This document shows, piece by piece, positions 42,143 through 63,998 of a stretch of DNA of 64,000 nt. Every line of letters starts with the position of its first letter. Positions within the stretch are counted from its first letter, which is position 1. The DNA is from a virus, in IMG/VR virus record IMGVR_UViG_3300033149_002975, positions 1 to 64,000 of that record; one strand, 5' to 3'. A model generated the notes under the pieces. The model had not been told where the DNA came from. It was given only the letters and a program-made list of their open reading frames with translations, and did no database searches. Position numbers and translations under genes: made by a program.

Positions 42143-42487
42143 TCAAACACGAATTTTATAACCTAAGCTTTCAATAAATGCTTCTATAACCATATCCATC
42201 AAATTGTCCTCAATACCCGCTTTTTCATCGTCATCTGCTATTTCTGTAATTTCCGGCAATAATTCATATAAATGCTCGTTTAAAGCGGGCACAACGTGTT
42301 CATACCAGTTATCTTCGGCTGCCGTCCCAGAAAAGATACTGTCACCCTTTTTATTTAGGATTTTCTTTAGTTTCTTTTTTAATTCATCAATATTATATTT
42401 AATTTTTTCTTCTTTCAATTCTTTTCTTTTAACCAATTCTATTGGTTGATCCCATATAAATTGTAACATTCTTTCAAAAGTATTCAT
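42143..42487 (-). CDS. Hypothetical protein, candidate internal head protein
   Basis: N-terminus MNTFERMLQF nearly identical to that of 44167-44982. Confidence 0.55.
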   Translation of the reverse strand: MNTFERMLQFIWDQPIELVKRKELKEEKIKYNIDELKKKLKKILNKKGDSIFSGTAAEDNWYEHVVPALNEHLYELLPEITEIADDDEKAGIEDNLMDMVIEAFIESLGYKIRV

Positions 42488-42491
42488 TATT

Positions 42492-43427
42492 TTATGCCTC
42501 CATCTTTTTTATATTTCCATCCACAGTATCATCAACCAAATCTTCAATTAATTTTATTTCCGTATCGCCGTCAACAACCGATACTGAAAATATCGTATAC
42601 GAACCATCATTATTGGTCGATCCTTCAATAAATATTGTTTCGCCAACTTCAAAATCGCTGGATCTATCATCCGATATAGTTATCGTATTGTCAATCAAAT
42701 TAACAGCAGAAATTCCGTATAATGAGATTTTTTCCATCCTTAATTTCTGTTCCAATTCCGTGTCTTGTGATGAATCTTCAACCACTATTGATGAATAATC
42801 AGTTACGTAATCTTTATCATATAATGTCATTCGTATTTTATTGATAATCCCAATATTATCATCACTCTTTAAAACCCACGCGTCCAATTTTATTGGCATT
42901 CTATAAACAAAATACCTGCCTTTGTTATATTCAACTGGAACTGTAGATTCATCAACAATTTCCCCAAAATGCAACCACGGTTGTAACACGTACAAATCAT
43001 TATACGTTATTTCCAAAGCCGGTGTTTCGTGTTGCCATAGTATGTAATTTTCAATTATTTGGTAGGCTTTATCCAAATTTTTTGTCCAAAACCACGCATT
43101 ATAACGAATATCTATTGGTTGTGCTTTTACTCTTCTAGGTAAACCATTATCTCTTGGAACAATCAAACCTTTTCTAGCTAATGGGGTTCTCTGTCTTTCC
43201 CAAGACGGTGATGCGCCGACTCTATAAAAATTTATAAATTCTAAAGAATCATATCCACGTTTTTCAGAAATTGTTCTCAACGCCACATCTTTATGAATTT
43301 GTATAACACTTTTATTTATTTTATCGGAAACCTCCAATGCGTCACCAAATTCCAACTTGCTGTGCCATTTTGCAAAAAGCAAAGTTTTCATTGCATCATC
43401 ATAACTTTTTATAAAAGAGACCGACAT
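42492..43427 (-). CDS. Putative tail terminator/sheath stabilizer (gp15-like) with an extra C-terminal beta domain
   Basis: PIDIRY..WFW; position between neck and sheath. Confidence 0.5.
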   Translation of the reverse strand: MSVSFIKSYDDAMKTLLFAKWHSKLEFGDALEVSDKINKSVIQIHKDVALRTISEKRGYDSLEFINFYRVGASPSWERQRTPLARKGLIVPRDNGLPRRVKAQPIDIRYNAWFWTKNLDKAYQIIENYILWQHETPALEITYNDLYVLQPWLHFGEIVDESTVPVEYNKGRYFVYRMPIKLDAWVLKSDDNIGIINKIRMTLYDKDYVTDYSSIVVEDSSQDTELEQKLRMEKISLYGISAVNLIDNTITISDDRSSDFEVGETIFIEGSTNNDGSYTIFSVSVVDGDTEIKLIEDLVDDTVDGNIKKMEA

Positions 43428-43685
43428 TTATTTCGCTTTCTTCTTATTATTCTTTTTTCCATTTCCCAAATCATATAACAATTGTGTAAATTTTGATATT
43501 ACTTCATCCTGTAATGCTGCTCCATCCAATTTCTTCTTTGTCCACGATTCTGCAAATCCTTCCGGGCCAACAGCAAATATTTTAAATCTGGATAAATTGT
43601 TCTTGGCTTTACAATAATCTTCAAACAACCGCTTTGCTATTATTGTAGTAGACATATCACGGTAAAAATAATTCTCGTTAATCAT
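43428..43685 (-). CDS. Hypothetical protein
   Basis: Coupled ORF. Confidence 0.5.
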   Translation of the reverse strand: MINENYFYRDMSTTIIAKRLFEDYCKAKNNLSRFKIFAVGPEGFAESWTKKKLDGAALQDEVISKFTQLLYDLGNGKKNNKKKAK

Positions 43686-44167
43686 AATTTAATCCTTCTA
43701 GGTGCAATAGAAAAACATCTCACAATTTCCATATCCTGCATACCTTTTAATGAAAGGTTTACAATTTCGAATTCTGATGTTTTCTCAATACCTTCTGGAA
43801 CTGTTTCTATATCAATTTTAAAATATGATTGTTTACAAATAGATACGTCAACTTCCGATCCAGCATCCGATCCCTCTAAAGCTATGGCCTTTGTTCCAAA
43901 CCAAGCAATAATCGGTAAATTATCTTCTACGTATAATCCAAGTTTCTTTAAACGATAAGCGGTTGGTTGCCACTCAATAAAAACCAAAGCCTGATAACTT
44001 ATATATTGAATATCAGATGGTGTTGCAAAAATATCAGATTTTTCAGCTTCATTGTACGATGCCACAGTTGGTATATATAGTATACAATCCTGCCCATAAT
44101 TCGTCAGTGAAACATTTACTTGGGTACGTAAGGCGTCAACTAATTCTTTTGGCAGCATTCTGGACAT
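43682..44167 (-). CDS. Putative head closure/neck protein (gp14-like)
   Basis: YGQDCILYIP, LKKLG; position. Confidence 0.5.
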   Translation of the reverse strand: MSRMLPKELVDALRTQVNVSLTNYGQDCILYIPTVASYNEAEKSDIFATPSDIQYISYQALVFIEWQPTAYRLKKLGLYVEDNLPIIAWFGTKAIALEGSDAGSEVDVSICKQSYFKIDIETVPEGIEKTSEFEIVNLSLKGMQDMEIVRCFSIAPRRIKL

Positions 44168-44982
44168 TATTTTTCATTCTCTTCATATTCAACATTAAAC
44201 GCTGAATCTTCGATATCTACTTCACCGGTTGGTTCTGATTCAATCCTCTTAGCTGCATCATTCAATTTGGATACCAAATTTTTTATGGCCTCAGCTTCAG
44301 TTTTACCATATGCGAACGCCGTATATTTAGCAACTTTTCCAGGAACTTTTTCTGCTAATTCGTTAACTTTTGATTCAAATTGTCTTCCCCTCTTAAATCG
44401 CCTGTAAATTCTTTTTACGTATTCTTCATCAAAAAAATTTCTCAACATGTTTTGTGCTTCTTCATACGATATTGTATCCGTGTCTCCTAATCTATCTTCT
44501 CTTTCTTCAGGGGGTAAAGAATTCCAACCATTCATAAACCATTCAACAAAAGGCTCTTCGTAAGCAACATCCCCTCTAGTATCATCCCACCCGGATTCAT
44601 TTAATTTTTCGTTCATCGTATCGTTAACATATTTGGTTAATTGGTTAACAATATCCTCTACCGAATCACCCTCCCAATAATCTTTATCTTCAGTTGACAG
44701 ATCACCGGCATTCCAAATTGCATCCAATTGCTCGATAGTTAATGGTTTATTGGATATAAACATAACTTTTGAATCAACTTCATCTTGATCATAATCATAA
44801 ATAACTGCGTCACCACCAACTTGTTGCGTGATTTTTACTATTTCTCTACCGGAAAAACTGTCCTTCCAGTCACAGGAAATTTGTGCTACCCTTATTTTAT
44901 CCCCGGATTCATTTAATTTTTTATCCGTAGGTTCTTCCAACTTATCCTGTACAAATTTTAACATTCTTTCAAAAGCATTCAT
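44167..44982 (-). CDS. Modular hypothetical protein with KLNES/ESKVNE linkers
   Basis: Linkers separate ~100, ~75 and ~60 aa segments. Confidence 0.65.
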   Translation of the reverse strand: MNAFERMLKFVQDKLEEPTDKKLNESGDKIRVAQISCDWKDSFSGREIVKITQQVGGDAVIYDYDQDEVDSKVMFISNKPLTIEQLDAIWNAGDLSTEDKDYWEGDSVEDIVNQLTKYVNDTMNEKLNESGWDDTRGDVAYEEPFVEWFMNGWNSLPPEEREDRLGDTDTISYEEAQNMLRNFFDEEYVKRIYRRFKRGRQFESKVNELAEKVPGKVAKYTAFAYGKTEAEAIKNLVSKLNDAAKRIESEPTGEVDIEDSAFNVEYEENEK

Positions 44983-45929
44983 TATTTTATACCTCCTACA
45001 ATTTTTTTGGTTTTTTCAACATCTTTCGGGCTTAATTCCCCATCTTCTAATAGATCTTTTAACTCTTTTATAATACGTAAATATTGATAACGAACAATAA
45101 ATTTAAATGTTGCGTTTTTATTCTTCCAAATTTTCTTTAAATTTTCATCCCCCATAGCTTGTTCTTTTGATTGTGGTTGTGAAGCCGACCGGCGGGTTTT
45201 TATTAAATCTGACCTTTTTTTATACAACATTTCTATATCATTTTCTATCTCTTTCAATTTTCCTTCCAATTTGGTAAGAAACGATTTTTTTAAATCTTTG
45301 GGCATTTTAGCTATTGCTTGTTTTATCGTTTCATAATCTATGATGTCACGTTTCAACTCCCCCATTTGCAAATCAACACCCTTTACTTCTTTTCTAATTT
45401 CATCAAAAATTTCTGAATAATCTTCATATGGGTCATAATCCTCCGGAACTATCTTTGGTCCTTTTAACCAATTGTCAGACATTATATTATAACAAGCATC
45501 GGCCAAATATTCCTGGTTTATATTTGATTGTATATAAACTTCAATTGGATATTTTCCAAAATAACCATTGATTTTGTCTCGATTATCAGAAAACCAGTCA
45601 AGTACAGCTTTTGAAAATTGTTCATCCTCATAGTATTTGGAATCCGTTGGTATCACTATATGAACATCAATATCTGAATCCTCACTGTATTGATTGGTAC
45701 ATATTGATCCTGTAATGTGAATCATTTTTTCTGAATCTTCACCGGTAGCCGCCATATCAATCAAATCAACATCTTTGTATTTTCCCAAAACATTTAAAAT
45801 TTTACGCCTTACCAAAGGCTTAAGTGTATATTTACCATTTTTAAAATCCCAAATGGATTTATTTAGAGTTTCACCCCTTGGAAAATCAATTGAAGATTCG
45901 ATGATTCTTTTATATAATTGTCCAAACAT
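44982..45929 (-). CDS. Pol-beta superfamily nucleotidyltransferase
   Basis: ITGSI.TNQY..DSDIDVHI...PIEVYIQ, then a helical C-terminal domain. Confidence 0.75.
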   Translation of the reverse strand: MFGQLYKRIIESSIDFPRGETLNKSIWDFKNGKYTLKPLVRRKILNVLGKYKDVDLIDMAATGEDSEKMIHITGSICTNQYSEDSDIDVHIVIPTDSKYYEDEQFSKAVLDWFSDNRDKINGYFGKYPIEVYIQSNINQEYLADACYNIMSDNWLKGPKIVPEDYDPYEDYSEIFDEIRKEVKGVDLQMGELKRDIIDYETIKQAIAKMPKDLKKSFLTKLEGKLKEIENDIEMLYKKRSDLIKTRRSASQPQSKEQAMGDENLKKIWKNKNATFKFIVRYQYLRIIKELKDLLEDGELSPKDVEKTKKIVGGIK

Positions 45930-45936: not shown

Positions 45937-48219
45937 CTATTCTTTCCTATCTCCAACTGTCCGCCAAAATAGGTTTTCATCAAATCTTGGGTTGTCCTCT
46001 TTAAACATCCTGACCAAAGCTGAAGCAAAAGCTTTAACATCGTCATTCAATGGTACCAGCTTTTTTAATTCTTTGGCTATCTCTTTATAATGCTTTCTTG
46101 AAAAATGGGATTCATTAACTTTTGATTCTTTCACAATTACTGCAAATTTTTGGGAATCTTCAGAATCCGGTATAACTACCCCGTTTTTCTCTCTCGCAAT
46201 TCTGTCAGCTTCTTCTCTATCAACTATCCCTTTCGCGATAACTGTTCTTGTTTCCTTTTCTTCCTCATTAACTTTGGATTCACCAACTTTTATTGTTCCT
46301 TCTCTATTTGTTTCGTCTACCCTTGCATGCTCATCCAAATAATTTTCCAAAACAATTAACTTGTCACGATCAGATGTTGCATTCCCCGTTTCATATATTG
46401 CTTGTAGTGCTTCTTCAAAAACACATTGTGGCTCTTTAGTCCATACGGGGTCCGAATCAAAATGCACGGTAACTTTGTAATAACTTTCTTTTGGTGAAAC
46501 ATTCCTTGGCAATCTGGCTTCATTAACCCCCGACATTTCAGACCCCAAATATTTTACACCATTTTCCTCAGCTAACTCTTCTCCTGTCTGATCTGCAAAA
46601 TCTTTCAATTCTTCTATCGACAGTGCGTTTTCTGTTCCAGGTTCAGCTATTTGTTGACTATCAAGTCTATGATTTCCAGCGATATAAATTTCTCTATCGG
46701 ATTTCGTGTCCACTATTCTATATCCATATTTGTCTACTACCCCATAAAGATCACCCATTTTCGCGTCTTCATTGGTTTTTCGTTCCGGGAGAATATAAGT
46801 TCCATCCAAATCTTTTATTTTTCTAGAACTAATGACACGTTTTTCCGGACTCTTCACTCTTGCCTTATTCATTGCGTCAACACGCGAATTGGCATCCAAC
46901 TCCACAACTGAACCGTCAAAAAATATAACTCTATATGTGCCGGGGTCAACGTGTACCCCAACTTCGTTCAATTCTCCGGTTATTTTCTCAACTCTTTCAC
47001 TGCCACATTCTGTACATTTAGATTCATTAGCTCTAAAAGTTTTGCAACATTCATTACAAAGATAAAGGCTTTTCCTTGTTAATGATTCACTGGTTCTAAG
47101 ACGACGGCCGGCAGTTCTTCTAGGACGGCCGGCAGTTCTTCTAGGACGGCTGGCAGTTCTTGCCCCACGTTCTGTATAACCACACGAATTACAAACCCAC
47201 GAACCACGAACTGGCGTCATTTTTTTATTGCATTTTGGGCACTTTTTTCCCGCCATTATTCTTTTGCCAACACCAAACTTTTGTCTCTGATATGATCCTC
47301 TACGAGGACCAGTTCCACTTCGTTCACCACTTTTAGTAAAAGATTCACCAACCTTTTTCATGCTACGGGTACCGGTTTCACTGTGAATCTTTTTACCTTT
47401 TGTATCTACTTTTTCTTCCGCCTGGGGGTTTTCCACCATCCCCACATCTTCCGCCTTTAACCCCTTTCCCTCTCCGGGTTTTTGGGTCTGGGGAACATTG
47501 GGTTTTGTTTTATCCTTAACTTTTGCTTTTTTTGATGCCGGTGCAGCAGGTGTTGATTTGGCCTTTGAACCATCAGTAGCCACTACTCCTTCAGCAACCG
47601 TTGATTCACTAGTATCCCAAACAATATTATAAGCTGTTCCGGTTCCATCGTCATTTCGTTTGATATCTAATTCGCTAACTAGGAACCCATAGCTATCGGA
47701 CAAATAATCAGCAACGGCCGTATCATTTCCCGCCTCTTGATCATCCATTATTTCTTTTGGAACATTATCGACCTTTTTTGGTAAATTATTGGCCTCACTT
47801 GTCACAGTTTTACTACGTTTTCCTCTTAACCACCTTCGTTCGGGACCCCACAGGTGGGCACCAGGTAAAGCTTCTCTGATCTTTTTCTTTTCAGTAACTT
47901 CGGTATTGTCAAACAGTTCTCTAATTTTATTATTAATCTCTTTACTGTATGGCAATTCATTTATATCTTCCGGAACATAAATATTGGTAGTTTCTTTACC
48001 GTTGTTAAATTTTATTTCTTCTTTTATGCTGCCAGTAGCTGTTTCTACATAAACGTCAACATCTGAATCAACATCTTTGTATGCCCCAACGTATTGCCAT
48101 ATTCTATTGGCTTCTCTGATCTTTTTCTTTTCAGCTTCCCTTATTGCCCTATCGTTTTCAGCATAAGCTTTTTTCAACGATTCAAAGAGATCAAACATTC
48201 CTTGGTTCTGCATTCTCAT
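45937..48219 (-). CDS. Large modular protein (760 aa) with zinc ribbons, Arg-rich repeat and repeated linkers
   Basis: KKKIREA x2, ESKVNE x2, CPKC..CNSC, CNEC..CTEC. Confidence 0.7.
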   Translation of the reverse strand: MRMQNQGMFDLFESLKKAYAENDRAIREAEKKKIREANRIWQYVGAYKDVDSDVDVYVETATGSIKEEIKFNNGKETTNIYVPEDINELPYSKEINNKIRELFDNTEVTEKKKIREALPGAHLWGPERRWLRGKRSKTVTSEANNLPKKVDNVPKEIMDDQEAGNDTAVADYLSDSYGFLVSELDIKRNDDGTGTAYNIVWDTSESTVAEGVVATDGSKAKSTPAAPASKKAKVKDKTKPNVPQTQKPGEGKGLKAEDVGMVENPQAEEKVDTKGKKIHSETGTRSMKKVGESFTKSGERSGTGPRRGSYQRQKFGVGKRIMAGKKCPKCNKKMTPVRGSWVCNSCGYTERGARTASRPRRTAGRPRRTAGRRLRTSESLTRKSLYLCNECCKTFRANESKCTECGSERVEKITGELNEVGVHVDPGTYRVIFFDGSVVELDANSRVDAMNKARVKSPEKRVISSRKIKDLDGTYILPERKTNEDAKMGDLYGVVDKYGYRIVDTKSDREIYIAGNHRLDSQQIAEPGTENALSIEELKDFADQTGEELAEENGVKYLGSEMSGVNEARLPRNVSPKESYYKVTVHFDSDPVWTKEPQCVFEEALQAIYETGNATSDRDKLIVLENYLDEHARVDETNREGTIKVGESKVNEEEKETRTVIAKGIVDREEADRIAREKNGVVIPDSEDSQKFAVIVKESKVNESHFSRKHYKEIAKELKKLVPLNDDVKAFASALVRMFKEDNPRFDENLFWRTVGDRKE
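47103..47161. repeat. 21-bp coding tandem repeat (RTAGRPR)
   Basis: gacggccggcagttcttctag x2 plus a partial copy. Confidence 0.85.
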
Positions 48220-48224: not shown

Positions 48225-48668
48225 TTACTCCTTTATAGAATTTGACATATCTATAATTTTTGCTTTATTGCCATTAATATCCGTCCAATTACCAGCTTGT
48301 CCTGTATTTTCCCAATCAATTAGATCCTTAACTCTGTCATAAATTGTCTTTCCCCGCGTCCACATTGCAACCTCATATTTCCCATTTACATTTATCATCG
48401 GTTTATATTCAACCGGTAAACGGGCAAAACGTGTATTTAACAATGCATGAACCACAGCCGGTGTATTTTTTTCAGACCCCAAAATCCAATTTAAAATATT
48501 GAGGGCCAATTTATCCTTGGGTAAGATACTAGCACCATTTTTTATCAAAATATCAAACAGTTTATCCACACCGGTACAAGGGGCATTCAATTTGTAATCA
48601 CCCAGAATTTGCAACAAGTTTTTATAAACCGTTAAATTTTTAGCTTCAAACAATTTATTGATGTTCAT
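48225..48668 (-). CDS. Hypothetical protein
   Basis: N-terminal KLFEA motif also present in the capsid propeptide. Confidence 0.6.
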   Translation of the reverse strand: MNINKLFEAKNLTVYKNLLQILGDYKLNAPCTGVDKLFDILIKNGASILPKDKLALNILNWILGSEKNTPAVVHALLNTRFARLPVEYKPMINVNGKYEVAMWTRGKTIYDRVKDLIDWENTGQAGNWTDINGNKAKIIDMSNSIKE

Positions 48669-48670: not shown

Positions 48671-50086
48671 TTATTTTTCCTTTTTAATAACTAAATCATC
48701 TATTACATTTTTAATTCTTTGAAAAGTCCCCCGTTTAAACAAACCACCAACGGGCCAAATCGTACTGTACACAATTTTGATTCCCGATGTTATATCTTCC
48801 TCAATTGCATCGAGTAACTCTTTGTCGGCCACATAAATTGTCTGACTTGGGTTGTACATAAAATCTATAAGATATTCAAAACCTAAATGGTATCCTTCGT
48901 ATAAAGAATTCATTCTAGTACCAAATATGTAATCAAAATCCCTAAAAACATCAAAAGTATTCAATTCCGACTTATTGGATAATGCAGCAATTAGCATTTC
49001 CAAATTTCCGCGGTCTTCACCGTATTCACGTAATAGTCGTCCATAGATTCGTTGTATATCACGTTTCATTTTCTCATTAGAAACCGCAATTGATTCCCCG
49101 GAAGAAGTTGTATATTGCACAACACCAAATACTGAATACCAATTCCACGCCATCTCTTGAAGTTTTATGAATTCCTTATTATGAAATAACGAATATAATT
49201 CAGTTTTTAATTTTGAACGAAGTTTCTTCATATCCGCTTCATTGGCCTCGAATAAACGACGTTCCTCCAATGATTCCTTCATATTCCCGAGCTTCAACAA
49301 TTTTCCGTTTATCTTGTTGCCAAATATCTTCAAAAAACCATCCCAGTGTTTTTTGGGAACTAAAAACTTGACTTTATTTTTAATTATAAACTGTCGTGGG
49401 TCCAAATCATCTAAAATTTCCAAATCCCAATCAGGTTTTTCTTCAGCTAAAGTTGTAAGCATTGCTTTAACAGCTCCTAGTTGCGTCGGCAAATAAGAAA
49501 TGTTGGACATAGTGGTGGATTCATTAATCTTTACTTCATTGGCGGTTATAAGTTCCATTTCCCGCTTACTTGCACCCAACAACCATTCCAATTGTTCTTT
49601 CGGATGAAGACTTGGAATTGATATAGCCTTCTTAAACCATATAATTCTTCTGAACCCATACCTATCATATAGATTGCATATTGTATTAATTTGTTTGTCA
49701 GTTAATTTTTTCTTATTTTCTATATTAATTTCTTTATTACTAACTGAAACCACAACAGCCCCTGAATCAAGCATACGATATTTATCGTAAATATCACTAT
49801 CTGTATATTCCAGGGCCAACTCCCCCAGCCGTCCTTCTCTGTATTTACGTTCCCCTTTTTTATAACCAAAATCTTTGTGTGCAAACGGTACGTGAATTAA
49901 TGACCCATCATTTAACAACCAAAATTTAACGTAATTACCTTCGCGAGGCCACGTGCTATATTTCTTATAATCAGCTTCTTTCGCAACGCCCCATTTCTTT
50001 TTTACCAATGATTGGATATTGGGCAATCTCGACTCGTCAATCATTACTCCATCAAAGACTTTTGTTGCTAAATTGTATAAAGACAT
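48671..50086 (-). CDS. Modular hypothetical protein
   Basis: MIDES, KINES and RLFEA linkers. Confidence 0.65.
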   Translation of the reverse strand: MSLYNLATKVFDGVMIDESRLPNIQSLVKKKWGVAKEADYKKYSTWPREGNYVKFWLLNDGSLIHVPFAHKDFGYKKGERKYREGRLGELALEYTDSDIYDKYRMLDSGAVVVSVSNKEINIENKKKLTDKQINTICNLYDRYGFRRIIWFKKAISIPSLHPKEQLEWLLGASKREMELITANEVKINESTTMSNISYLPTQLGAVKAMLTTLAEEKPDWDLEILDDLDPRQFIIKNKVKFLVPKKHWDGFLKIFGNKINGKLLKLGNMKESLEERRLFEANEADMKKLRSKLKTELYSLFHNKEFIKLQEMAWNWYSVFGVVQYTTSSGESIAVSNEKMKRDIQRIYGRLLREYGEDRGNLEMLIAALSNKSELNTFDVFRDFDYIFGTRMNSLYEGYHLGFEYLIDFMYNPSQTIYVADKELLDAIEEDITSGIKIVYSTIWPVGGLFKRGTFQRIKNVIDDLVIKKEK

Positions 50087-52275: not shown

Positions 52276-53055
52276 TTAGACCGCTACCAAACTCTCGGTA
52301 TTGTGGGAACAGATACCATAATGTCCAATAGCAAAATTACAATTTCTGCATAAAATTCTAAAATCACTTGGAAAATTATTATAAATTATCCAATCATATA
52401 TACCGGACCCAACATCTTTTCTGTGTTTACAACCACCACCACAAATATGATCGACGGATAACACATCAAAATTCTCTTCCCCGCAGCATTCACACTTCCC
52501 ACCATAATAACCAATAACTGTACTCCTAATTCGTGCATAACGTCCATTAACACGTTTAATTGAATTAAGATATTTTAACCAATTACAATTATGACATAAA
52601 ACCTGAAATCCTGATGGAAAATTATTATTAATTATCCACCGGTAAAACCCATAACCACTAAATGATTTAATTTGTTCTGTTCCGCCGCCATTAATATGAT
52701 CTACGGTCAAGAACATTAAATTGGACTCACCACAACAAGCACATTTGCCACCATAATGGGTAATAATTTGTAATTTTATTTTCTGTCCATACTCAAAATG
52801 TCTCAATTTCTCTTCGGTGGCGTGATTATCCCTAAATTTCTTTCCGTACCTCCTTATTTCTTCAATATGTTCTTTTCGATACAAACCCCAATATTCATTA
52901 AACCGATCTTTGTTGTCCTTTCTATATGTACTCTTACATTCTTTACACTTTGAATACAAACCATCCGGTGAATATTTGTTTCTACTAAAATATACTGATG
53001 TAGCTGGTAATTCTCTTTTACAACCAGAACAAATTTTAATACCATCATTAATCAT
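52276..53055 (-). CDS. HNH homing endonuclease-like protein with tandem HNH domains
   Basis: Two copies of YGGKC.CCGE...VDHI.GGG...F..LC.NCN; N-terminal CxxC..CxxC. Confidence 0.75.
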   Translation of the reverse strand: MINDGIKICSGCKRELPATSVYFSRNKYSPDGLYSKCKECKSTYRKDNKDRFNEYWGLYRKEHIEEIRRYGKKFRDNHATEEKLRHFEYGQKIKLQIITHYGGKCACCGESNLMFLTVDHINGGGTEQIKSFSGYGFYRWIINNNFPSGFQVLCHNCNWLKYLNSIKRVNGRYARIRSTVIGYYGGKCECCGEENFDVLSVDHICGGGCKHRKDVGSGIYDWIIYNNFPSDFRILCRNCNFAIGHYGICSHNTESLVAV

Positions 53056-55403: not shown

Positions 55404-55420
55404 GTTCTTCACCTTTCCTT

Positions 55421-57760
55421 TTAAGATTTTAATCCTAATACATTGTTAATAATTGTTTTCTGACGTTTTCTAACTGGGTCGATTGGTTCTTTTCGCTTTT
55501 CAATTAATACCGTTTGCACCGGATTGGCATGAAGTGCACGCCTACGCGAAACATCGCGGCATTCGTCTAAAGCTTTATCGACCTCTTCAATTGTCTGACA
55601 ACTTTCAAGAAGTGCTCGTTGGTTGTCAGAAATTTGTAGCCCATTTGATTCCTTTGTTAAATATTCTTTAATTATTCTTGCTCTAACTTTTTTTTCAGTT
55701 TGCTTTATTTTTTCATCAAATTTTTTGTTGGCCTCCGTCATTTCCCTATCATGCTTTTTCTTTAATCCTGCGGCCTTTTGTTTTAAATATGAAGTTACTT
55801 TTTTGATTTCTGCTTTTGCATTATTAAGTTTCTTCTCCAATATGTTTATCTTTGCTGTTAATTCATTGCTACGTTTCATTAAATCCTGTGCTGATTTTGC
55901 CTTCTCTTCAAGTTTTAACCTTAAAGCCAAAACATCATCAGATTCTGCATTCCTCATTTCTTTAAGCTTTTTGGTAAGAATTCGAAATTCCAAATCTTTA
56001 TCAGCTATGGTATTCAAAAATTCGACTGCCAAATCTCTTTCAGCGCGTGAGGTGGCTTCTTTAATTTGTAATTCCATGATATCTTTACCAATGGGTCTAA
56101 CTATTTCCGGTTTCGATACAGACATTACCCCCTCTGGAACTGTTTCACTGAAAGAAGTTTTCAATATTCCGGCAATTACCTTCGCCATTTCAACAGCTTT
56201 TTCTTTTGTTGGAAAACTAAATGTCAAGTAAGCAGCACCATTTGCTGGCTTCCTATAAACACCGTATTTATCATTCAAAAAACCGGTCTCATCAACAAAT
56301 AATATGTCTTTATCCTCATTAATTTTTGACTCTTCAAGAACTATTATTTCATATTGTGATTCATCATACCAGTCATCAATACCGTCAATTTTTACGGCGG
56401 TCGTTCCTTCGGGTTCCGTTGTACTAACATCCACAACTTTTCCAAATGGAACAATTGTCGTGTTACCGTCTTTATCTTTTATTTGTACAATATTCCCAAC
56501 TTTATAACGTTCATTTAACATTTCATTGATATAATCAATAATTTGTTCCACCGATTCATTCCTTTGGTGTGCCGGTTTTACGGCACGTTTCTTTCCCAAT
56601 GCACCCATACAACGCTTGTAGGCTTCTTTTTGCGTCATTTCTCCAGATTTGATTTTTGCCGCATAACCTGTAGCACATTTGTGGAAAGCTTTCGTGTGGA
56701 CCCCTTTACCTTTTGGGGGTTTCAAACCTTTGCTGGTGTACAATTTTCTAATCTCTTCTGTTTCATTAACTTTTGATTCTTTCATATCTTCCGAATCCAA
56801 ATCAAATTCCTCCTCAAAATCTTCGTCCGACAATTCGATATCTTCACCGGACGTATCATCGTCAACGTCCCCAGTTTCCGTTTGCGTCCCATCATCAGGT
56901 ATAGCTATTTCATCAGGTGCTCCTTGTGGGGGCGTTTCCACGGTAATTTCAACCGTTGAATCGGGTTGATCCGGTAACACATTAACCGATTTTACATCCC
57001 CGGTAGCAACAATTTTTTGTGTATTTGGGTTCACTCCCACCGTTATTTGTTCTTCATTGGTCCTTGATTCAGACGATATTCTAATATTACCTTCAACTAT
57101 TTTACATTCCCCTTTATCATTACACTCTATAGATTCCAAAAGTTTCATTGCAAATCGTTTCTCTTCCGGCTTTATTTTCTCGTTCTCAATTTCTTTGCGG
57201 ACGGCAGACATTATGTTTCTTTTTATGTCTATTGGGAAAGCACCAAATGTTGAAGGGTCTGCCGTAAAATCTGTAACTTTAAAATTATACGCTTCAGGAA
57301 TTACATGATAACATTTATTGCCGGACTCATCAATTTCTTCTCTCAAATCACCCTCAGCCCTCGTTGACACACCAATATTACATTTGGCAGCCAACAATGC
57401 GTCAATAATTCTGCCCTGCGGGGTATCCAGAACATCCATCTCAGTATATACTTTACTCTCGTCCATCCACATTTTAACAATTACGTGAGAAATTAATGGA
57501 GTTTTGGATTGAATGCCGTCAGGGTGCTCTGCGTGCCCAAATAACGAACGATTCTTTATTGAATCCATCAATTCTTTGTTTTCAAAGAGCCTTTCCCACA
57601 CATCGCGTCCGTATATTCGGTGATTGGCATTAATTTTCCCTATATTACAAATGGGATAGACCACACGGCATAAAACACGATCCGGCAATTTGTCGGTTTT
57701 CACCAATCTCCCGCCTGTGGTAATCGATTCATCCAATTTTTGGTTTTTTAATATTCTCAT
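55421..57760 (-). CDS. Prohead protease (gp21-like) fused to inserted modules and a scaffold-like coiled coil
   Basis: NANHRIY, GHAEHP, ISH, LDTPQG, GVSTRAEG, DFTADPS; long K/E coiled-coil C-terminus. Confidence 0.85.
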   Translation of the reverse strand: MRILKNQKLDESITTGGRLVKTDKLPDRVLCRVVYPICNIGKINANHRIYGRDVWERLFENKELMDSIKNRSLFGHAEHPDGIQSKTPLISHVIVKMWMDESKVYTEMDVLDTPQGRIIDALLAAKCNIGVSTRAEGDLREEIDESGNKCYHVIPEAYNFKVTDFTADPSTFGAFPIDIKRNIMSAVRKEIENEKIKPEEKRFAMKLLESIECNDKGECKIVEGNIRISSESRTNEEQITVGVNPNTQKIVATGDVKSVNVLPDQPDSTVEITVETPPQGAPDEIAIPDDGTQTETGDVDDDTSGEDIELSDEDFEEEFDLDSEDMKESKVNETEEIRKLYTSKGLKPPKGKGVHTKAFHKCATGYAAKIKSGEMTQKEAYKRCMGALGKKRAVKPAHQRNESVEQIIDYINEMLNERYKVGNIVQIKDKDGNTTIVPFGKVVDVSTTEPEGTTAVKIDGIDDWYDESQYEIIVLEESKINEDKDILFVDETGFLNDKYGVYRKPANGAAYLTFSFPTKEKAVEMAKVIAGILKTSFSETVPEGVMSVSKPEIVRPIGKDIMELQIKEATSRAERDLAVEFLNTIADKDLEFRILTKKLKEMRNAESDDVLALRLKLEEKAKSAQDLMKRSNELTAKINILEKKLNNAKAEIKKVTSYLKQKAAGLKKKHDREMTEANKKFDEKIKQTEKKVRARIIKEYLTKESNGLQISDNQRALLESCQTIEEVDKALDECRDVSRRRALHANPVQTVLIEKRKEPIDPVRKRQKTIINNVLGLKS

Positions 57761-57777: not shown

Positions 57778-60700
57778 TTATCTCTTTAAAAGCTTTCTAA
57801 GCAAATCTACACCGCGTGAAGGAACAATAAAATCTTGTGGTTGCCTGGTTTCTTCCAATTTTTTGTCATTTTTCTTGATACGCACCGCTTCCGATATTTT
57901 TATTGATGGATAAGCAGCGTGCACGGCACGTTTTACTTTATCCTGTAAACTCTTTAAGGACCCAGAATACCAAGGTGGTGACGACTTATAATGCTTACAA
58001 TACGATAAAGCGGCCCTTGCTTGCTTGGCGGTATTAATTGGAAAATGATCTTTTTTGTCTTTTGATTTTTCTGCAGGAAATACGACCTTACCTCTATTAC
58101 GGTTTTCGGCTTTTGGATTCAATTTCCTACCGGTTTTCTTGGAAACCATTGCTTCTCGTAATTTATTCATTTTTAACCCCTTTTCATTCATTGATTCCTT
58201 TAAAATCGGTGCTTCTACGCCCGGACTACCAAAAATATCTGGGCTTCCATAATACATCAACAAATCTGATACTCTATACGGTAATGGTTTTTTCATCCAT
58301 TCTTCCTCTGATCCTGCACCGGAAAACTTCACTACATCCTTGATATTAAACCGCCCACCATTTTCTATTAATTCTTTAAGATCATCCTCTGAAAATTCAG
58401 TAATGGAAAATTTAGTATATTCATCAGGGTTTTCTTCACCGCCGTGTTGTGTTCCATAAATAAACAAGAAATTCCCATTACCCAAGTCTTTATGTATCAA
58501 ACCATAATTGTAAAGACTTATTTCAACATTCGCATCAACGGAACCTTCAAAACCGTCATCAATGGCCCTAGTTAACGTGTAATCATTTGGAATTTCTTTC
58601 ATAGTCTCATTAATTTTTGATTCTTTCAACATACCGGAATAAACATAAAATTTATTATCTATATCTATTACATAATCATAATTATCTGCATCTTCTTTAG
58701 CAACCTCGACCCATTCCGACAATTCGTCATTGTTCACATTAAACAGTATTACATACCCATTGTATTCTTCTATCAATTTATAACCGGAATCTTCAATCAA
58801 ATCGATATGTTCGTTAATATTGGATTCATTTCTTGGTTTAAATTGACCCTCCCCACGCCTGGCTTGGTCCTCAGTTCTCTTTAATTCATCGCCGTGCAAA
58901 ATGTAAGGATTTTCCTCATCTTCATCAGATTCCTCATCATTATTTTCCTCAGCACTCTGCTTGACCAAATCATCATATTCCTCTTGTTCCATATATGACA
59001 AGGCATCCAATGCCAATTCCCGCAAACCTTCTTCCGACAATTCACCTTCTGAATTTCTCCACATAGAAGCAAAGTCCGAGTCAAAACGAAATTCACGACC
59101 ATTTATGCTTATCACTGTATCCAGTGTTCCATCATCTTCCAAATAAACATCAAATTCATTCGTTCCATCAGAAACTTTCATTTCAATTAACGGCTTATTC
59201 ATTTTCGACTCTTTAAGAGACATGCTTCTCAACCATGCATGAATTTCCGGTTTATTATAATCAGTAAATAATGAAGACCTTATATAATCATTTATTTTGT
59301 CAATACTGCTATTATTTGGTGTAAGCCCGCCGCTCCAATCCTTGAAATCAGCTATTATTGCATTTTTAGCATCCTCTGACAACAAATCGTTGGGACATTT
59401 TTCCCCTCTCATTTTTCTTACACCTTTATCCCCATAAATGCTTCTTTGTGCAGAATCTTTGTATGGGCCAGTACCATCCCTTTTACCACGAATATTTTTT
59501 CCTTCACTAATCTGTTTTAAAATTTTTGATGCCAAATCAATTTTTGATTGCAATTCGTTGATATCATCAAACGTCAACTTATAAGTTTTTATCAAGGTAT
59601 CTATTACTAAACGAGTTGTGTCCAAAGCCATATTTTCTCTTTTTTTAGTTGGATCACTCTTTACTTTAATTATGGCATCTGATACAATTTTTGCAATCTC
59701 TTCATCGTTTGGCAACGCCACTTTTTCAACAATATCTTTCATCATTTTAATCTTAAAACCCCTATCATCACATTGTGGACAAATACCACCTCTTCTTAGT
59801 TCAGAGTATTTAGCTTTATATCCACACATCGGACAAATGTATTCATCGGCTAGCAACCCCGCTTTTTCAACAATTTTCGATTCCTTTTTCTCCCTTTCAA
59901 TCTCTGCCGGGTGTGGCGGCGGCTCAACTTTTGATCCTTTTTCCCCCGTATTTTCCTCTTCTTCTGGCTCTTCCTCTTCTTCTGGCTCTTCCTCTTCTTC
60001 TGGCTCTTCCTCCGGTTCTGGTGCTTCTTCTTCAGGCATTATATAATTCATCACTACATCCCTAGTTACTGAATCTATATCAACATCCCTTATTACCGAA
60101 GCAACAAACCCACGTATATCTTTAACATCCAATAATTTTTCTTTTGCAGAATAAACTTTATTGCCCTCCTGATCAACCAATTGCAAATCCCCATCATCGG
60201 TCGTTACCATATAATAATGGTTGTCTTCCGATTCCCCTACATATTCCTTCTCAATTGGGGCTTCTTCTGGTTCCGTATCAGTATCGGCCTTTTTCCCTAA
60301 TTCCTGCTCTGGTCTAAATTTAGGTTTGTGTTCTGTTTTTGGTTTCAGTTCTTTGGGGATATCTTCATAGTTGGGTTCTTCTACATCCCCTTTTATTTCA
60401 TCTTCATTAACTCTAGACTCATCAACAATCAATGAACTAGATTCCGCGAATTTATCATAAAAAGCAATAAACCTATCTATCGCTTCTTCAACATTTTTTA
60501 CAAAACGTTTACTGTTCCTATCTTTCGTAGTATAGAATTGTGCAAGATTAAACTCTGGAGTATCAACGGAAACGTAAAAACCATCATCACGCTTTTTTAC
60601 TTTAACATCTTTTCTCTCTATTCCTTCATTAACTTTGGATTCGGTGGCCTTTGCCAATTTTTTAACTTTTCTAGCAAACCTATTGATCCATCTTTCCTCA

Positions 60701-61074
60701 CCGGTATCTTTTATGCGAATTTTTAATGATCTATTATCGGGACTTATATCCAAAATTTCGGCGTCGGACCATTGTTTGCCGCCTTTAGTAACAGCTTGTG
60801 ATCCACCCACCGGGACTTTGACTATTTCACCGATTTTATAGGTTAATTTTCTATATATGTCTGGATCCGGAATATTGGATTCACCCACCAATGAATTGCG
60901 AATATTCTCTACAGTTGTTATTCTCGTCGATTTATTAACCGATCGCAGCTTTCTGCTACCGACAGCAATTCTTTCAAAAAGCGACATATTGGGGTCTTTA
61001 AATTTTTTGGAACTCGTCAACGAACTGTCTTTTATCCCCCTGCGCCTTTTTGCCAAATCTTCAAATAAGCTCAT
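57778..61074 (-). CDS. Large modular protein (1098 aa), candidate internal head polyprotein
   Basis: ESKVNE, ESRVNE, ESKIVE, ESNINE, ESKINE and ESMNE linkers; CPMC..CPQC; acidic PEEEEE repeats. Confidence 0.7.
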   Translation of the reverse strand: MSLFEDLAKRRRGIKDSSLTSSKKFKDPNMSLFERIAVGSRKLRSVNKSTRITTVENIRNSLVGESNIPDPDIYRKLTYKIGEIVKVPVGGSQAVTKGGKQWSDAEILDISPDNRSLKIRIKDTGEERWINRFARKVKKLAKATESKVNEGIERKDVKVKKRDDGFYVSVDTPEFNLAQFYTTKDRNSKRFVKNVEEAIDRFIAFYDKFAESSSLIVDESRVNEDEIKGDVEEPNYEDIPKELKPKTEHKPKFRPEQELGKKADTDTEPEEAPIEKEYVGESEDNHYYMVTTDDGDLQLVDQEGNKVYSAKEKLLDVKDIRGFVASVIRDVDIDSVTRDVVMNYIMPEEEAPEPEEEPEEEEEPEEEEEPEEEENTGEKGSKVEPPPHPAEIEREKKESKIVEKAGLLADEYICPMCGYKAKYSELRRGGICPQCDDRGFKIKMMKDIVEKVALPNDEEIAKIVSDAIIKVKSDPTKKRENMALDTTRLVIDTLIKTYKLTFDDINELQSKIDLASKILKQISEGKNIRGKRDGTGPYKDSAQRSIYGDKGVRKMRGEKCPNDLLSEDAKNAIIADFKDWSGGLTPNNSSIDKINDYIRSSLFTDYNKPEIHAWLRSMSLKESKMNKPLIEMKVSDGTNEFDVYLEDDGTLDTVISINGREFRFDSDFASMWRNSEGELSEEGLRELALDALSYMEQEEYDDLVKQSAEENNDEESDEDEENPYILHGDELKRTEDQARRGEGQFKPRNESNINEHIDLIEDSGYKLIEEYNGYVILFNVNNDELSEWVEVAKEDADNYDYVIDIDNKFYVYSGMLKESKINETMKEIPNDYTLTRAIDDGFEGSVDANVEISLYNYGLIHKDLGNGNFLFIYGTQHGGEENPDEYTKFSITEFSEDDLKELIENGGRFNIKDVVKFSGAGSEEEWMKKPLPYRVSDLLMYYGSPDIFGSPGVEAPILKESMNEKGLKMNKLREAMVSKKTGRKLNPKAENRNRGKVVFPAEKSKDKKDHFPINTAKQARAALSYCKHYKSSPPWYSGSLKSLQDKVKRAVHAAYPSIKISEAVRIKKNDKKLEETRQPQDFIVPSRGVDLLRKLLKR

Positions 61075-61417: not shown

Positions 61418-61428
61418 CAATTTACCCT

Positions 61429-61614: not shown

Positions 61615-61629
61615 AATACACCCAATCAA

Positions 61630-63162
61630 TTATTCATCTATTACTTTATTATCACTAGTAACTACCAATTCATCAGCAATTGCTGATTCACCGTCTATTA
61701 ATATATCAATACCCAACAACTTATCGCCGGTGGCAACCACGGTTTCAGGTTCTGGCTCAGGTTCGGGTTCCGGGGCCCCACCAAACACCCGCAATAATGG
61801 ATAAGTTTCTGATTCAGTTATCCACCAATCATTGTCAAAATCCCAATTGGTGAATGTTGCTTGCTGTTTCATTTCGGCGGTAGTCTTACCTTCAGCGTCC
61901 CCTTCATCCTCAGCACCACCGTCCACGGCTACCCCTGAAGTTTCAATATTCCAAAAAGAATTCGTTGCATATTGGGCAAATGTTGCGTCGTTAATATCTA
62001 CTTCAACACCAGAAGCTATATTACCATTAAATTCCAAATCTATAAGAATGGAATCATCATCACTATCAAGTATGTTATACCACCCATCTGTATATTTGGC
62101 GTCATTAAATTCAACGGCTGCATACATTGAACCGGGAACCGTATTCTTGAATTCACCAGATTTGGTAAGTAAAACCTTGCCCCCTACACCTTCCGTTACC
62201 GCACAATGAGGACTGGAAGTATAATCCACCAAATTCCAATGTAAATTTCCACAAAAACCACCAATGCGGGTCTTAGAAGATTGATCCCCTATATGGGTAA
62301 GTTTTCCCAATGAATAACAATTGACACAATCCGTATTTATACTATCGCTACCTACAAAACCACCAAGATAGCACATAGAATCGGAAACAACCGTTACATC
62401 CACATCTGTCCAACAATTTAAGAAATACCCATTATTTGATTGTCCTATAAATCCAGCACCTATTGATGAAGAAACAATGGTCCCAGTAACATAACAATTT
62501 TTCACCGGAAAACCTTTAGAAATACCAAAACCGAGACAAGCACCAATCATACCGGCACCGGATTTACAAGTAATATCAATATCTACCAACCCCAAATTTT
62601 TGATGGGGTTGTCGGTAAGAGAAGAATCTTGTCCTACGGATACATCTACCCCATTAGGTATAACGTGATTGAAGGGTAAATCAAGCACAATATAATCGTC
62701 ATTAACCCCAATTATATCATATGTACCATTTTCATACCAAATACTAACAAAATCTACAATCGCTTTCATTCCAACTTTTGAATGACCAAATCTGCCGGCC
62801 TGCGTTATCCTAACGTTGCCACCGTCATCCGACACTGCACCATCATCACAACTATCGACATCGGCTCCACTAACCGGATCTACTGCACCAAACAAACCCT
62901 GATTAACTTCGGTCGGACGATTTATTTTCATATTGGATATTATATGTCCTTGGCCGTCAAAAAATCCATTGAAAAAATCGCCGGAATTCCAAGATCCTAT
63001 AGGCCACCAACCCGTACCGTCCCCTTTTGGATCAACGCCTGTTAAATCCAAATCAGTGGTAAGTTTAAATAAATTGTCTTTCCATAATTTTCCGGCAAAC
63101 TTCCCGGAAAGCAAGGTAAGATCAATTAAATCTTGAACGGAATCTATTGTGTACTCAGCCAC
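61630..63162 (-). CDS. GLUG-motif beta-helix protein with two inserted beta domains
   Basis: PIG...F.G.FDGQGH.ISN, GGFVG, NCYS.G, TTAEMKQQATFTNWDF...W. Confidence 0.7.
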   Translation of the reverse strand: MAEYTIDSVQDLIDLTLLSGKFAGKLWKDNLFKLTTDLDLTGVDPKGDGTGWWPIGSWNSGDFFNGFFDGQGHIISNMKINRPTEVNQGLFGAVDPVSGADVDSCDDGAVSDDGGNVRITQAGRFGHSKVGMKAIVDFVSIWYENGTYDIIGVNDDYIVLDLPFNHVIPNGVDVSVGQDSSLTDNPIKNLGLVDIDITCKSGAGMIGACLGFGISKGFPVKNCYVTGTIVSSSIGAGFIGQSNNGYFLNCWTDVDVTVVSDSMCYLGGFVGSDSINTDCVNCYSLGKLTHIGDQSSKTRIGGFCGNLHWNLVDYTSSPHCAVTEGVGGKVLLTKSGEFKNTVPGSMYAAVEFNDAKYTDGWYNILDSDDDSILIDLEFNGNIASGVEVDINDATFAQYATNSFWNIETSGVAVDGGAEDEGDAEGKTTAEMKQQATFTNWDFDNDWWITESETYPLLRVFGGAPEPEPEPEPETVVATGDKLLGIDILIDGESAIADELVVTSDNKVIDE

Positions 63163-63170
63163 CTATTAAT

Positions 63171-63383
63171 TTATTCCTTTTTCTCGTTTAAATTTTGTTT
63201 TTTTAAAATTTTCTTTGATTCGTTTGTCCCATCGCCAATATCCGCTGCCGGTATTTCCTTATCTTTTGTCAAACTTAATATTTTGGCTACCGATTGTAGA
63301 TTCTGTACACCGCCTTGCTTCAGCGCGATATCACACAACTGAACAATAACTTCACGTCCTTCTTTGTCAACTATTATTTCCAT
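63171..63383 (-). CDS. Hypothetical protein
   Basis: AAGGGG RBS. Confidence 0.55.
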   Translation of the reverse strand: MEIIVDKEGREVIVQLCDIALKQGGVQNLQSVAKILSLTKDKEIPAADIGDGTNESKKILKKQNLNEKKE

Positions 63384-63804
63384 TATTCGCCCCCTTTAAT
63401 ATTGAATTGTATATTTCTTCGTTTAAACGTTCCTGAATTGCAGGAATCAACATTCTGAATTCCAAATTACCTTGCTGGCATTCTATAATTACATGCGTCA
63501 AAAGACTCGACAAACCCTTTGCCACCGTAAATCCGTCAATTTTTTCTTCCACCCCTTCGTGAATCTTTTTCCCACGGCATATTTGAAGAAGCGTTCTATA
63601 AATGTGCTTTTTATCCTTCAATTTTCCAATGATTTCCGCGGATAGATGATCCGGCGTTGGTAATTTTAAAATTTCTTGTTCACATAGTTCATATGAATGG
63701 TTAGTAAATAATCTCATCGCCTTATCAACGATTTTTTGATACTTGGTCCCCGAAAGATAAATCTCGGCTTCCATTAATTTGGATAAAAGCTCTGCATTAA
63801 TCAT
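63367..63804 (-). CDS. Hypothetical protein
   Basis: Coupled ORF. Confidence 0.55.
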   Translation of the reverse strand: MINAELLSKLMEAEIYLSGTKYQKIVDKAMRLFTNHSYELCEQEILKLPTPDHLSAEIIGKLKDKKHIYRTLLQICRGKKIHEGVEEKIDGFTVAKGLSSLLTHVIIECQQGNLEFRMLIPAIQERLNEEIYNSILKGANNGNNS

Positions 63805-63818
63805 TTTGTATCATTCCA

Positions 63819-63998
63819 TCAGCGTTTTGTAAATCGGCGTTTCCGCAAATCAACGTGCCGCAAACTGGGTGGTGTTTCCAATGAATCATTATTTTCTTCA
63901 TCAATTCTGGATTCAACTGCGGGGGTTGGCTTCGTTAACTTCGCCAATGCTTCATCAGCCCACTTCTCACCTTCAAATTCAGCCAAAACTTTGGGACC
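63819..63998 (-). CDS. 3' end of a CDS running off the window; contains an ESRIDE linker
   Basis: Hand translation GPKVLAEFEGEKWADEALAKLTKPTPAVESRIDEENNDSLE...KR*. Confidence 0.55.
   Translation of the reverse strand, partial: GPKVLAEFEGEKWADEALAKLTKPTPAVESRIDEENNDSLETPPSLRHVDLRKRRFTKR

Follow-up and report, generated by a model that had tools for sequence, protein, structure and literature searches.

Head module and linker motif

The window analysed here is the first 64 kb (positions 1 to 64,000) of IMG/VR virus record IMGVR_UViG_3300033149_002975, a single contig of 102,811 bp in which minus-strand genes run from about 14 kb to about 71 kb. The region under study is the head module of a contractile-tailed phage, and several of its long open reading frames (ORFs) contain a short recurrent peptide, ES-x-[VIT]-[ND]-E, called the linker below (Table 1). 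A preliminary description of the sequence had proposed that these ORFs encode polyproteins that are loaded into the prohead, cut at the linkers into small effectors and ejected with the DNA. ORFs are named by their lower coordinate or their length, and a slash within a motif marks a predicted scissile bond.

No match to this phage was obtained by megablast against cultured phages, and the best cultured capsid matches by tblastn were those of Bacillus phage HSE3 and Listeria phage LIS04, at 26% identity. Metagenomes hold at least 290 capsid homologues, the closest at 82-92% identity; a single-protein scan of viral contigs gave no match. The relatives referred to below are 36 IMG/VR loci, 35 of them distinct (L027 repeats L006), with capsid identity of up to about 70%.

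The linker motif occurs 12 times in the genome, and 11 copies lie in five head-module ORFs (four in 57778-61074, three in 55421-57760, two in 45937-48219 and one each in 44167-44982 and 63819-64691). When each protein was shuffled (1000 shuffles) the mean was 0.19 copies per genome and the maximum 3. The genome beyond the window holds no additional copy. The twelfth copy, ESEINE, is in the left-arm ORF 4090-4458, inside a DnaJ-type CxxCxGxG zinc finger, and is not a linker. The counts and positions given in the preliminary description, including this left-arm copy, proved exact, and all the variants listed there are present (ESINE twice, ESKIVE, ESMNE, KLNES twice, KIREA twice, KINES, RINEA and KLFEA). 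Looser sites of the T4 type are enriched about 2.5-fold, and this enrichment is confined to head-module ORFs. The pattern [KR][LIV]xE was found 60 times against 24.9 expected in the 33 head ORFs and 54 times against 44.9 in the 111 other ORFs, and [LIV]xE[AS] 53 times against 19.7 and 38 times against 36.8, respectively.

The codons for Ser, Glu, Asn and Arg differ among the twelve copies, and the DNA near-matches to the motif in the whole genome are all in frame within ORFs. The motif therefore acts at the peptide level, and a motif at the nucleic-acid level was rejected. Among the relatives, ES.[VILT][NDE]E was found in 24 of the 35 loci with unconserved flanking residues, and the stricter ES[KR][VIT][ND]E 42 times against 0.3 expected, always on the strand of the capsid gene; more distant relatives have K-K-L-[LTV]-E or E-S-V-N-E in place of the hexapeptide. 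Codon variation, in-frame matches and recurrence between unconserved flanks together argue that the motif is a short linear peptide signal that selection has preserved in a clade whose capsid proteins can be as little as about 40-50% identical. Some linkers are nevertheless encoded within exact DNA repeats (23 nt at 46111 and 56762, 25 nt at 47870 and 48110, 20 nt at 44590 and 44902), which may aid recombination.

Joints in close database relatives read V-K-E/S-K, A-N-E/S-K and F-N-E/S-K, and many copies in the window are preceded by [LVM]-K. For these reasons the hexapeptide may consist of two overlapping sites, x-x-E/S-K-V-N-E/. That the first E-S may itself be a site was no part of the preliminary description. 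The reading of the motif as a Lys-Asn isopeptide cross-link of the HK97 style was without support and was dropped, since T4-type shells are not known to be cross-linked.

The protease and its reference sites

The protease ORF matches PF03420 (Peptidase_S77) at 32.4 bits against a cut-off of 27, and PHROG 207 'head maturation protease' with an E-value of 5e-28. A profile built from 32 relatives matches PDB entry 5JBL, T4 gp21, with an E-value of 1.6e-7; a phmmer search of the protease ORF against PDB sequences did not recover gp21, and the profile search did. Among the 32 relatives E11, H79 and S132 are invariant and L208 and E209 nearly so. Moreover, H79 and S132 align to positions of 5JBL that are 55 residues apart, which is the spacing of His85 and Ser140 of gp21, presumably its catalytic residues. 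By these alignments the enzyme is an S77 protease of the T4 gp21 type with invariant His and Ser. Its domain is bracketed by a conserved M-x-L-N-E, which holds the invariant Glu11, and by [IL]-L-E/S at 207-210; T4 gp21 likewise has an N-terminal site, LIE-9, and C-terminal processing (PMC9026906).

The capsid protein provides a second reference. Its propeptide of 79 aa ends in S-K-L-F-E79/A-T-T-E-D, with L77, F78 and E79 invariant in 24 homologues, at the position where T4 gp23 is cut. S-K-L-F-E and the S-K-V-N-E of the linker have the same residues at P5 (Ser) and P1 (Glu) and the same residue classes at P4 (basic) and P3 (aliphatic). The capsid site and the sites flanking the protease domain suggest, indirectly, that the protease cuts C-terminal to Glu in [L/I]-x-E. 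Since the phage has a gp21-type protease, and since the linker resembles the capsid site and the sites flanking the protease domain and occurs only in the head module, the linkers are most likely prohead-protease sites. The prohead-protease character claimed earlier for the linkers is thus upheld in silico.

In the AlphaFold 2 (AF2) model of the whole protease ORF the protease domain (about 22-210) is predicted with confidence, and residues 334-413 and 424-475 form a helical and a beta module, respectively. From 557 onward the model is helical; one unbroken helix spans 589-704 (predicted local distance difference test, pLDDT, 70-91), and a small helical domain follows. The order is therefore leader, protease, putative cargo modules and scaffold-like coiled coil. 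The protease and capsid genes are adjacent, with no ORF in between. In 31 relatives the ends of the protease ORF are constant and its middle is variable; the C-terminal 220 aa are conserved and the total length ranges from 533 to 1545 aa. Judged by these models the ORF is a putative protease-cargo-scaffold fusion, with a coiled coil that is scaffold-like by prediction, a point which also goes beyond the preliminary description.

Linkers and module borders

The segments between linkers had been described as unrelated to each other, and this is largely so: comparison of the 35 segments with a length of 40 aa or more gave just two matching pairs, one formed by the duplicated pentapeptide domain and the other by a short Gly-Thr-Gly-Pro element that two segments have in common. 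BLAST comparison with the ORFs of the relatives revealed conserved blocks between linkers; the high-scoring segment pairs (HSPs) seldom span the ES-type linkers and often stop there. HSP ends within 15 residues numbered 20 at KINE189/S of ORF 48671 and 27 at RINE15/A of ORF 50107. An exhaustive HMMER search with the 1098-aa ORF gave 684 proteins of 79-1314 aa in which the matching block may be at any position. The HMMER blocks 620-720, 819-965 and 975-1065 adjoin the sites at 622, 823, 960/974 and 1062, and the matches include the stand-alone proteins P0174 (79 aa), P0223 (131 aa) and P0167 (107 aa).

An AF2 model of aa 600-1098 of the same ORF, built on an alignment of 47 rows, shows two domains with high confidence, 627-714 and 994-1059 (pLDDT 95-97), and one with medium confidence, 754-814; pLDDT is low at 622-624, 720-753 and 817-828. 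All five ES-type linkers covered by the AF2 models lie in or abut low-confidence stretches that separate domains of high or medium confidence, and in these models (aa 600-1098 and the protease ORF) no linker is crossed by a confidently predicted fold. Linkers and module borders coincide, and the expectation that domain boundaries would be found there is borne out by both homology blocks and AF2 domains.

The same modules are arranged differently in the relatives. In L030 the order of blocks 268-347, 523-563, 615-731 and 984-1076 of the 1098-aa ORF is changed, and L025 has them distributed over two ORFs. The pentapeptide module, which here forms a separate leader-bearing ORF, is in L001 part of the large ORF that lies upstream of the protease. 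DUF5662 has its own leader-bearing ORF in the window phage (68842-69441), whereas L003 and L018 encode it in fusion with other modules. Module 653-703 of the 760-aa ORF has counterparts in five relatives, where the ORF that contains it differs; in L010 it is the protease ORF of 1545 aa. The N-terminal domain of ORF 50107 is found in relatives alone, as a protein of 214-250 aa, or with other C-terminal modules, and the C-terminal domain of ORF 48671 is in most relatives a separate protein of about 290 aa; in the window phage both ORFs have extra modules attached via ESINE or KINES. From these comparisons modules appear to be gained, lost and moved between head ORFs, which fits the expandable, linker-delimited arrangement put forward in the preliminary description.

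Leaders and C-terminal helix

The pattern [LIVM]xE[ASG] is present in the first 40 aa of 12 of the 33 head ORFs and of 5 of the 111 others (Fisher p 9e-6), and the leaders have a common amphipathic pattern, M-x-x-F/I-E/D-R/K-L/M. In T4 a targeting sequence of 10 residues suffices to load foreign proteins, which are then trimmed by gp21 and delivered to the host cell (PMC9026906). The leader resembles this capsid-targeting sequence of about 10 residues, and by analogy a role in packaging is predicted for it. For the nucleotidyltransferase-fold protein the true start is likely to be at 45929, giving the leader MFGQLYKRIIE/S, because relatives align only from aa ~40-50 of the long ORF.

A repeat of 62 nt with 84% identity (42449-42510 and 44944-45005) was also observed. 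It covers the ribosome-binding region and the leader codons, MNTFERML and MNAFERML, of ORFs 42143-42487 and 44167-44982, and the leader seems to have been copied as a DNA cassette.

At the other end of the 1098-aa ORF, positions 57781-57888 (aa 1063-1098) encode the stretch after the last linker, which ends in a basic tail, ..PSRGVDLLRKLLKR, and a similar basic tail, ..PSLRHVDLRKRRFTKR, follows the last linker of ORF 63819 at 63822-63896. P0121 and P0145 share this ending; in closer relatives the ORF upstream of the protease ends in a D-L-L-x-x-L-L helix. We conjecture that the C-terminal basic helix is a capsid or scaffold anchor.

Gene and module content

Table 1. Genes, candidate polyproteins and linker copies of the head module (positions of the whole record; aa numbers refer to the respective ORF)
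Feature	Position	Strand	Details
Tail sheath gene	40456-42105		PHROG 23
271-aa ORF	44167-44982	-	leader MNAFERML..; KLNE/S at 25 and 129 (20-nt exact DNA repeat); ESKVNE 203-208
Nucleotidyltransferase-fold protein	44982-45929	-	NTP_transf_2, E 4e-5; conserved in 12 relatives
760-aa candidate polyprotein	45937-48219	-	leader LFE13/S; KKIRE/A at 36 and 116 (25-nt exact DNA repeat); two zinc ribbons; two ESKVNE; 57-aa C-terminal module
147-aa conserved head-module protein	48225-48668	-	8-aa leader ending KLFE8/A
471-aa ORF	48671-50086	-	leader MIDE18/S; add-on module 19-189 ending KINE189/S; conserved domain 190-465
721-aa ORF	50107-52272	-	leader RINE15/A; clade-wide conserved N-domain aa 16-230; three add-on modules following ESINE241, ESINE428 and LKE580/S
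Major capsid protein, T4 gp23-type	53868-55412	-	PF07068, E 7.5e-31 from aa 93; PHROG 138
Protease ORF, 779 aa	55421-57760	-	leader KLDE11/S; S77 domain aa ~22-210 ending LLE209/S; modules 237-333 (acidic), 334-482 and 483-556; scaffold-like coiled coil 557-704; helical C-terminal domain
1098-aa candidate polyprotein	57778-61074	-	directly upstream of protease gene; duplicated N-terminal leader (MSLFE..); four ES-type linkers; about nine modules; C-terminal basic helix; further sites ESKIVE 398-403, LKE/S 622, LKE/S 960, LRE/A 974, ISE/A 1062
145-aa conserved head-module protein	63367-63804	-	leader MINAELLSKLME12/A
290-aa ORF	63819-64691	-	3' part in window; leader ending FQE22/A; RyR domain; basic C-terminal tail
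T4-type portal	69640-71397		PF07230
Linker ESKVNE	44359-44376	-	aa 203-208 of 271-aa ORF
Linker ESKVNE	46111-46128	-	aa 698-703 of 760-aa ORF
Linker ESKVNE	46264-46281	-	aa 647-652 of 760-aa ORF
Linker ESKINE	56315-56332	-	aa 477-482 of protease ORF; start of low-pLDDT 475-517
Linker ESKVNE	56762-56779	-	aa 328-333 of protease ORF; end of low-pLDDT 266-332
23-nt exact repeat	56762-56784 = 46111-46133		contains protease-ORF ESKVNE
Linker ESRTNE	57053-57070	-	aa 231-236 of protease ORF; in low-pLDDT 223-246
Linker ESKINE	58606-58623	-	aa 818-823 of 1098-aa ORF; in low-pLDDT 817-828; L001 HSP begins aa 818
Linker ESNINE	58810-58827	-	aa 750-755 of 1098-aa ORF; after low-pLDDT acidic stretch 720-753
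Linker ESRVNE	60403-60420	-	aa 219-224 of 1098-aa ORF
Linker ESKVNE	60625-60642	-	aa 145-150 of 1098-aa ORF
Linker ESRIDE	63897-63914	-	aa 260-265 of 290-aa ORF

The module families recognized are pentapeptide repeats (twice, E 4e-83), RyR, DUF5662, NTP_transf_2, DUF6582 and several zinc ribbons; the first five of these, all non-structural, are carried by leader-bearing ORFs. Many modules are acidic with low-complexity stretches. Several segments had been likened to stand-alone small phage proteins. This holds for the DANVEISLYNYGL and DHFPIN modules of the 1098-aa ORF, and for the SRKHY..DNPRFD tail the likeness is only a lead. The last 57 residues of the 760-aa ORF (703-760) are similar, as a lead from the Atlas, to stand-alone viral proteins of 60-70 aa; a word-index search with aa 640-760 of that ORF brought up no short relatives. 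A tblastn search with the DUF6582-like module against cultured phages gave no match.

Two elements recur within the genome. The pentapeptide-repeat domain is found twice in the leader-bearing ORF at genome 64708-66081 (L037:909-2282) and once in a stand-alone gene of 182 aa on the opposite strand at genome 72672-73220 (L037:8873-9421); it may be a DNA mimic that serves both as virion cargo and as an expressed gene. A short basic G-T-G-P element followed by a zinc ribbon is common to both polyproteins, with 53% identity over 32 aa. It lies at 47344-47871 (aa 293-652 of ORF 45937) and 59209-59865 (aa 404-622 of ORF 57778), and is present at varied positions in four or five relatives.

Some neighbouring genes deserve mention. 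Among the head genes, on the minus strand at genome 66092-66796 (L037:2293-2997), is one for a serine protease of the trypsin type (Trypsin_2, E 6e-20), which has a hydrophobic segment in its N-terminal part. The gene at 52276-53079, of HNH or endonuclease VII type, internally duplicated and placed between conserved head genes, has a homologue in L003 only and is probably a mobile homing endonuclease insertion. The 510-aa ORF at 61630-63162, also within the head module, has a Pro-Glu repeat near its C-terminus and a homologue in L030 only (58% identity); neither a leader nor a linker nor a Pfam family was found in it. Further away, a short homologue of adenylosuccinate synthetase (PF00709, E 2e-35) lies at 4404-5504. 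As regards the wider clade, the capsid homologues P0024 and P0065 (about 50% identity) bear NCBI labels of metagenome bins of Thorarchaeota and Hodarchaeota (Asgard archaea), which could be a binning artefact or a hint to the hosts of the clade.

Proposed processing and its alternatives

Because the linker Glu-Ser-Lys-Val/Ile-Asn-Glu fits the cutting rule of the phage's own head-maturation protease, the modules are probably loaded and cut in the capsid; that the long ORFs are prohead-loaded module polyproteins cut by the S77 protease at the linkers is the explanation in which we have reasonable confidence. About a dozen head-module proteins would be destined for the interior of the prohead. 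Entry would probably be directed by the short amphipathic leader at the N-terminus, much as the T4 capsid-targeting sequence does; the ORF adjoining the protease gene may also use its C-terminal basic helix, and in one case the modules would be carried in by covalent insertion between the protease domain and the scaffold-like coiled coil. Once the shell is assembled, the S77 protease would cleave behind the Glu of [K/R]-[L/I/V]-x-E sites, of which E-S-K-[V/I]-N-E would be the strongest form. These cuts would remove the leaders, detach the protease from the scaffold, convert the capsid protein to its mature form at KLFE/A and split the long ORFs into roughly 30-35 modules of 50-360 aa. Modules retained in the head would exit with the DNA. 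Recombination would add, drop or shift modules between head ORFs, and they would be exchangeable because each is bracketed by the same short, sequence-independent linker. Cleavage at the linkers, retention in the head, ejection with the DNA and effector functions are successive steps that we infer, and the name effector is given to the modules by analogy with T4 Alt and IPI.

Several observations weigh against this explanation. Module 829-964 of the 1098-aa ORF is poorly modelled, and the site at 974 falls in a predicted low-confidence helix. The scissile bond could follow the first or the second Glu of the hexapeptide. Domains conserved throughout the clade in several linker-bearing ORFs may be structural or scaffold parts and not cargo, namely aa 16-230 of ORF 50107, aa 190-465 of ORF 48671 and the coiled-coil C-terminus of the protease ORF. 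Nor do cleavage sites by themselves imply cargo, since the T4 scaffold is cut at many sites for its removal. When the model of aa 600-1098 was compared by Foldseek with BFVD and PDB, nothing matched at E <= 0.001, and as fold searches brought no informative match an effector role is unsupported for most modules. Finally, the phage is uncultured and, going by sequence comparison, the nearest cultured capsid is distant, as said above.

The long ORFs and the extension of the protease could instead be the prohead core or scaffold, chopped only so that it can leave the shell, with nothing delivered, in parallel to T4 gp22, gp67 and gp68 and to the propeptides of phiKZ and SPN3US. A long coiled coil does end the protease ORF beside the capsid gene, 12-20 relatives share modules 260-350 and 615-715 of the 1098-aa ORF, a degree of conservation to be expected of a core component, and the acidic, low-complexity character of numerous modules would suit a scaffold. 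Moreover, in SPN3US the identified cuts, bar the protease's own, remove N-terminal propeptides, at several sites (PMC10052503). However, compact predicted domains of 70-90 aa (pLDDT 95-97) and non-structural families such as pentapeptide, RyR, NTP_transf_2, DUF5662 and DUF6582 are unexpected in a disposable scaffold. In addition, module content varies strongly among relatives while capsid, protease and coiled coil stay constant, and the same modules stand alone as proteins elsewhere. Clearance of a scaffold as the whole explanation is therefore unlikely in our judgement.

The linker might also not be cut at all, and be a neutral spacer, a recombination 'sticky end' of the DNA or a peptide for docking to shell or portal, in proteins that stay intact as 'polyvalent' ones. 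The exact repeats of 20-25 nt described above, which encode some linkers and bracket single modules, speak for this, and the virion RNA polymerase of N4 and some polyvalent proteins are indeed packaged uncut (PMC5512222). The codons of the linker nevertheless vary synonymously among copies, and the peptide is kept across relatives to about 40-50% capsid identity when its flanks are not. Furthermore, the P5-P1 pattern is common to the capsid site, and a spacer would need no invariant Glu, Ser, basic, aliphatic and Glu residues. These invariant positions make an uncut spacer or docking motif very improbable. That the cut is made by another enzyme or at another time, whether by the Trypsin_2 protease, by a host protease or after injection, is hardly credible: a second protease gene does lie within the same gene block and some S1-family enzymes are Glu-specific, but the Trypsin_2 protein has an N-terminal hydrophobic segment, no homologue of it occurs within 10 kb of the capsid gene in the 35 relatives, which carry the linker all the same, and the linker resembles both the site of capsid maturation and those on either side of the S77 domain.

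If cleavage by the S77 protease and delivery of the modules both hold, about 16% of the genome (5.3-5.7 thousand codons, a figure that includes the protease itself and several possibly structural domains) would encode proteins that enter the prohead, and many modules would reach the host ahead of phage transcription. The system would be a natural counterpart to the engineered 'expression-packaging-processing' system of T4. It would also offer a sequence rule by which to predict the virion cargo of metagenomic phages, supply a pool of small proteins as candidates for roles in anti-defence or host takeover, and account for the spread of 533-1545 aa in the prohead-protease ORFs of the clade. The hexapeptide and the compact S77 domain are potentially useful as a specific pair of protease and site. 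A broader idea, for which we would claim only a possible, somewhat doubtful standing, is that a portable loading code, consisting of a leader or a protease/scaffold fusion, the hexapeptide and possibly an anchor helix, is used throughout a large uncultured clade of T4-type phages to inject an arsenal of effectors. By such a code almost any small protein could be inserted into a head polyprotein, taken into the prohead, set free by the prohead protease and injected along with the DNA. The arsenal would evolve fast and would bring dozens of pre-made effectors per virion, for instance DNA-mimic pentapeptide proteins and a nucleotidyltransferase.

Comparison with known systems

In a limited literature search, cargo polyproteins delimited by prohead-protease sites were not found described. 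The closest parallel is offered by the T4 internal proteins IPI, IPII and IPIII and by Alt, whose capsid targeting and gp21 processing are treated in PMC9026906 with reference to Mullaney and Black 1996. Both phages have a T4-type capsid (PF07068) and portal (PF07230), an S77 protease with N- and C-terminal sites, and short N-terminal leaders that end in [LI]-x-E, with cutting after Glu predicted here (PMC9026906); in both the leader-bearing proteins are diverse and poorly conserved between relatives. No head ORF matched a PHROG or Pfam family of IPI, IPII, IPIII or Alt. In T4, however, every internal protein has a small gene of its own with a single site, and the site rule is loose, whereas here the modules are concatenated in ORFs of 271-1098 aa and joined by a defined hexapeptide, E-S-K-V/I-N-E. 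Cargo modules are here also predicted between protease and scaffold, and a C-terminal helix is a possible second anchor.

The polyvalent proteins (Iyer et al. 2017, PMC5512222) similarly combine unrelated domains, from 2 to 15 per polypeptide, with combinatorial content, and are encoded among virion genes. They are predicted to be packaged and delivered with the DNA, and their authors liken them to viral polyproteins released by a peptidase (PMC5512222). The peptidase embedded in them is in most cases a zincin-like metallopeptidase, and no linker code common to them is described, whereas the present ORFs would depend on the prohead protease and the hexapeptide. By Pfam none of the polyvalent repertoire (MuF, ART, MPTase, primase, methylase and others) was found in the long ORFs, and the only fused peptidase is S77.

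The giant phages phiKZ, 201phi2-1 and SPN3US are alike in having a distant gp21-type protease and many head or ejection proteins that are cut after the Glu of a short motif, commonly at several sites (PMC10052503, PMC9026906). Their identified cuts take N-terminal propeptides off single mature proteins, whereas here the sites separate modules along the whole length, in a genome of merely 103 kb.

In P2 gpO, lambda C/Nu3 and herpesvirus UL26 an N-terminal maturation protease and a C-terminal scaffold are joined in one ORF beside the capsid gene, with release sites. The protease ORF of the window differs in having 250 aa (up to about 1000 aa in L010) of unrelated, linker-bracketed modules between protease and predicted scaffold. 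The cargo-loading peptide of encapsulins is a short terminal peptide that sends arbitrary cargo into an HK97-fold shell, with no protease processing and no DNA, and a similar role may be conjectured for the conserved helix that ends the ORF upstream of the protease. By analogy, then, the arrangement described here is mechanistically best regarded as the targeting-sequence and gp21 system of T4 extended to concatenated modules, with a hexapeptide as their joint and a predicted fusion of protease and scaffold.

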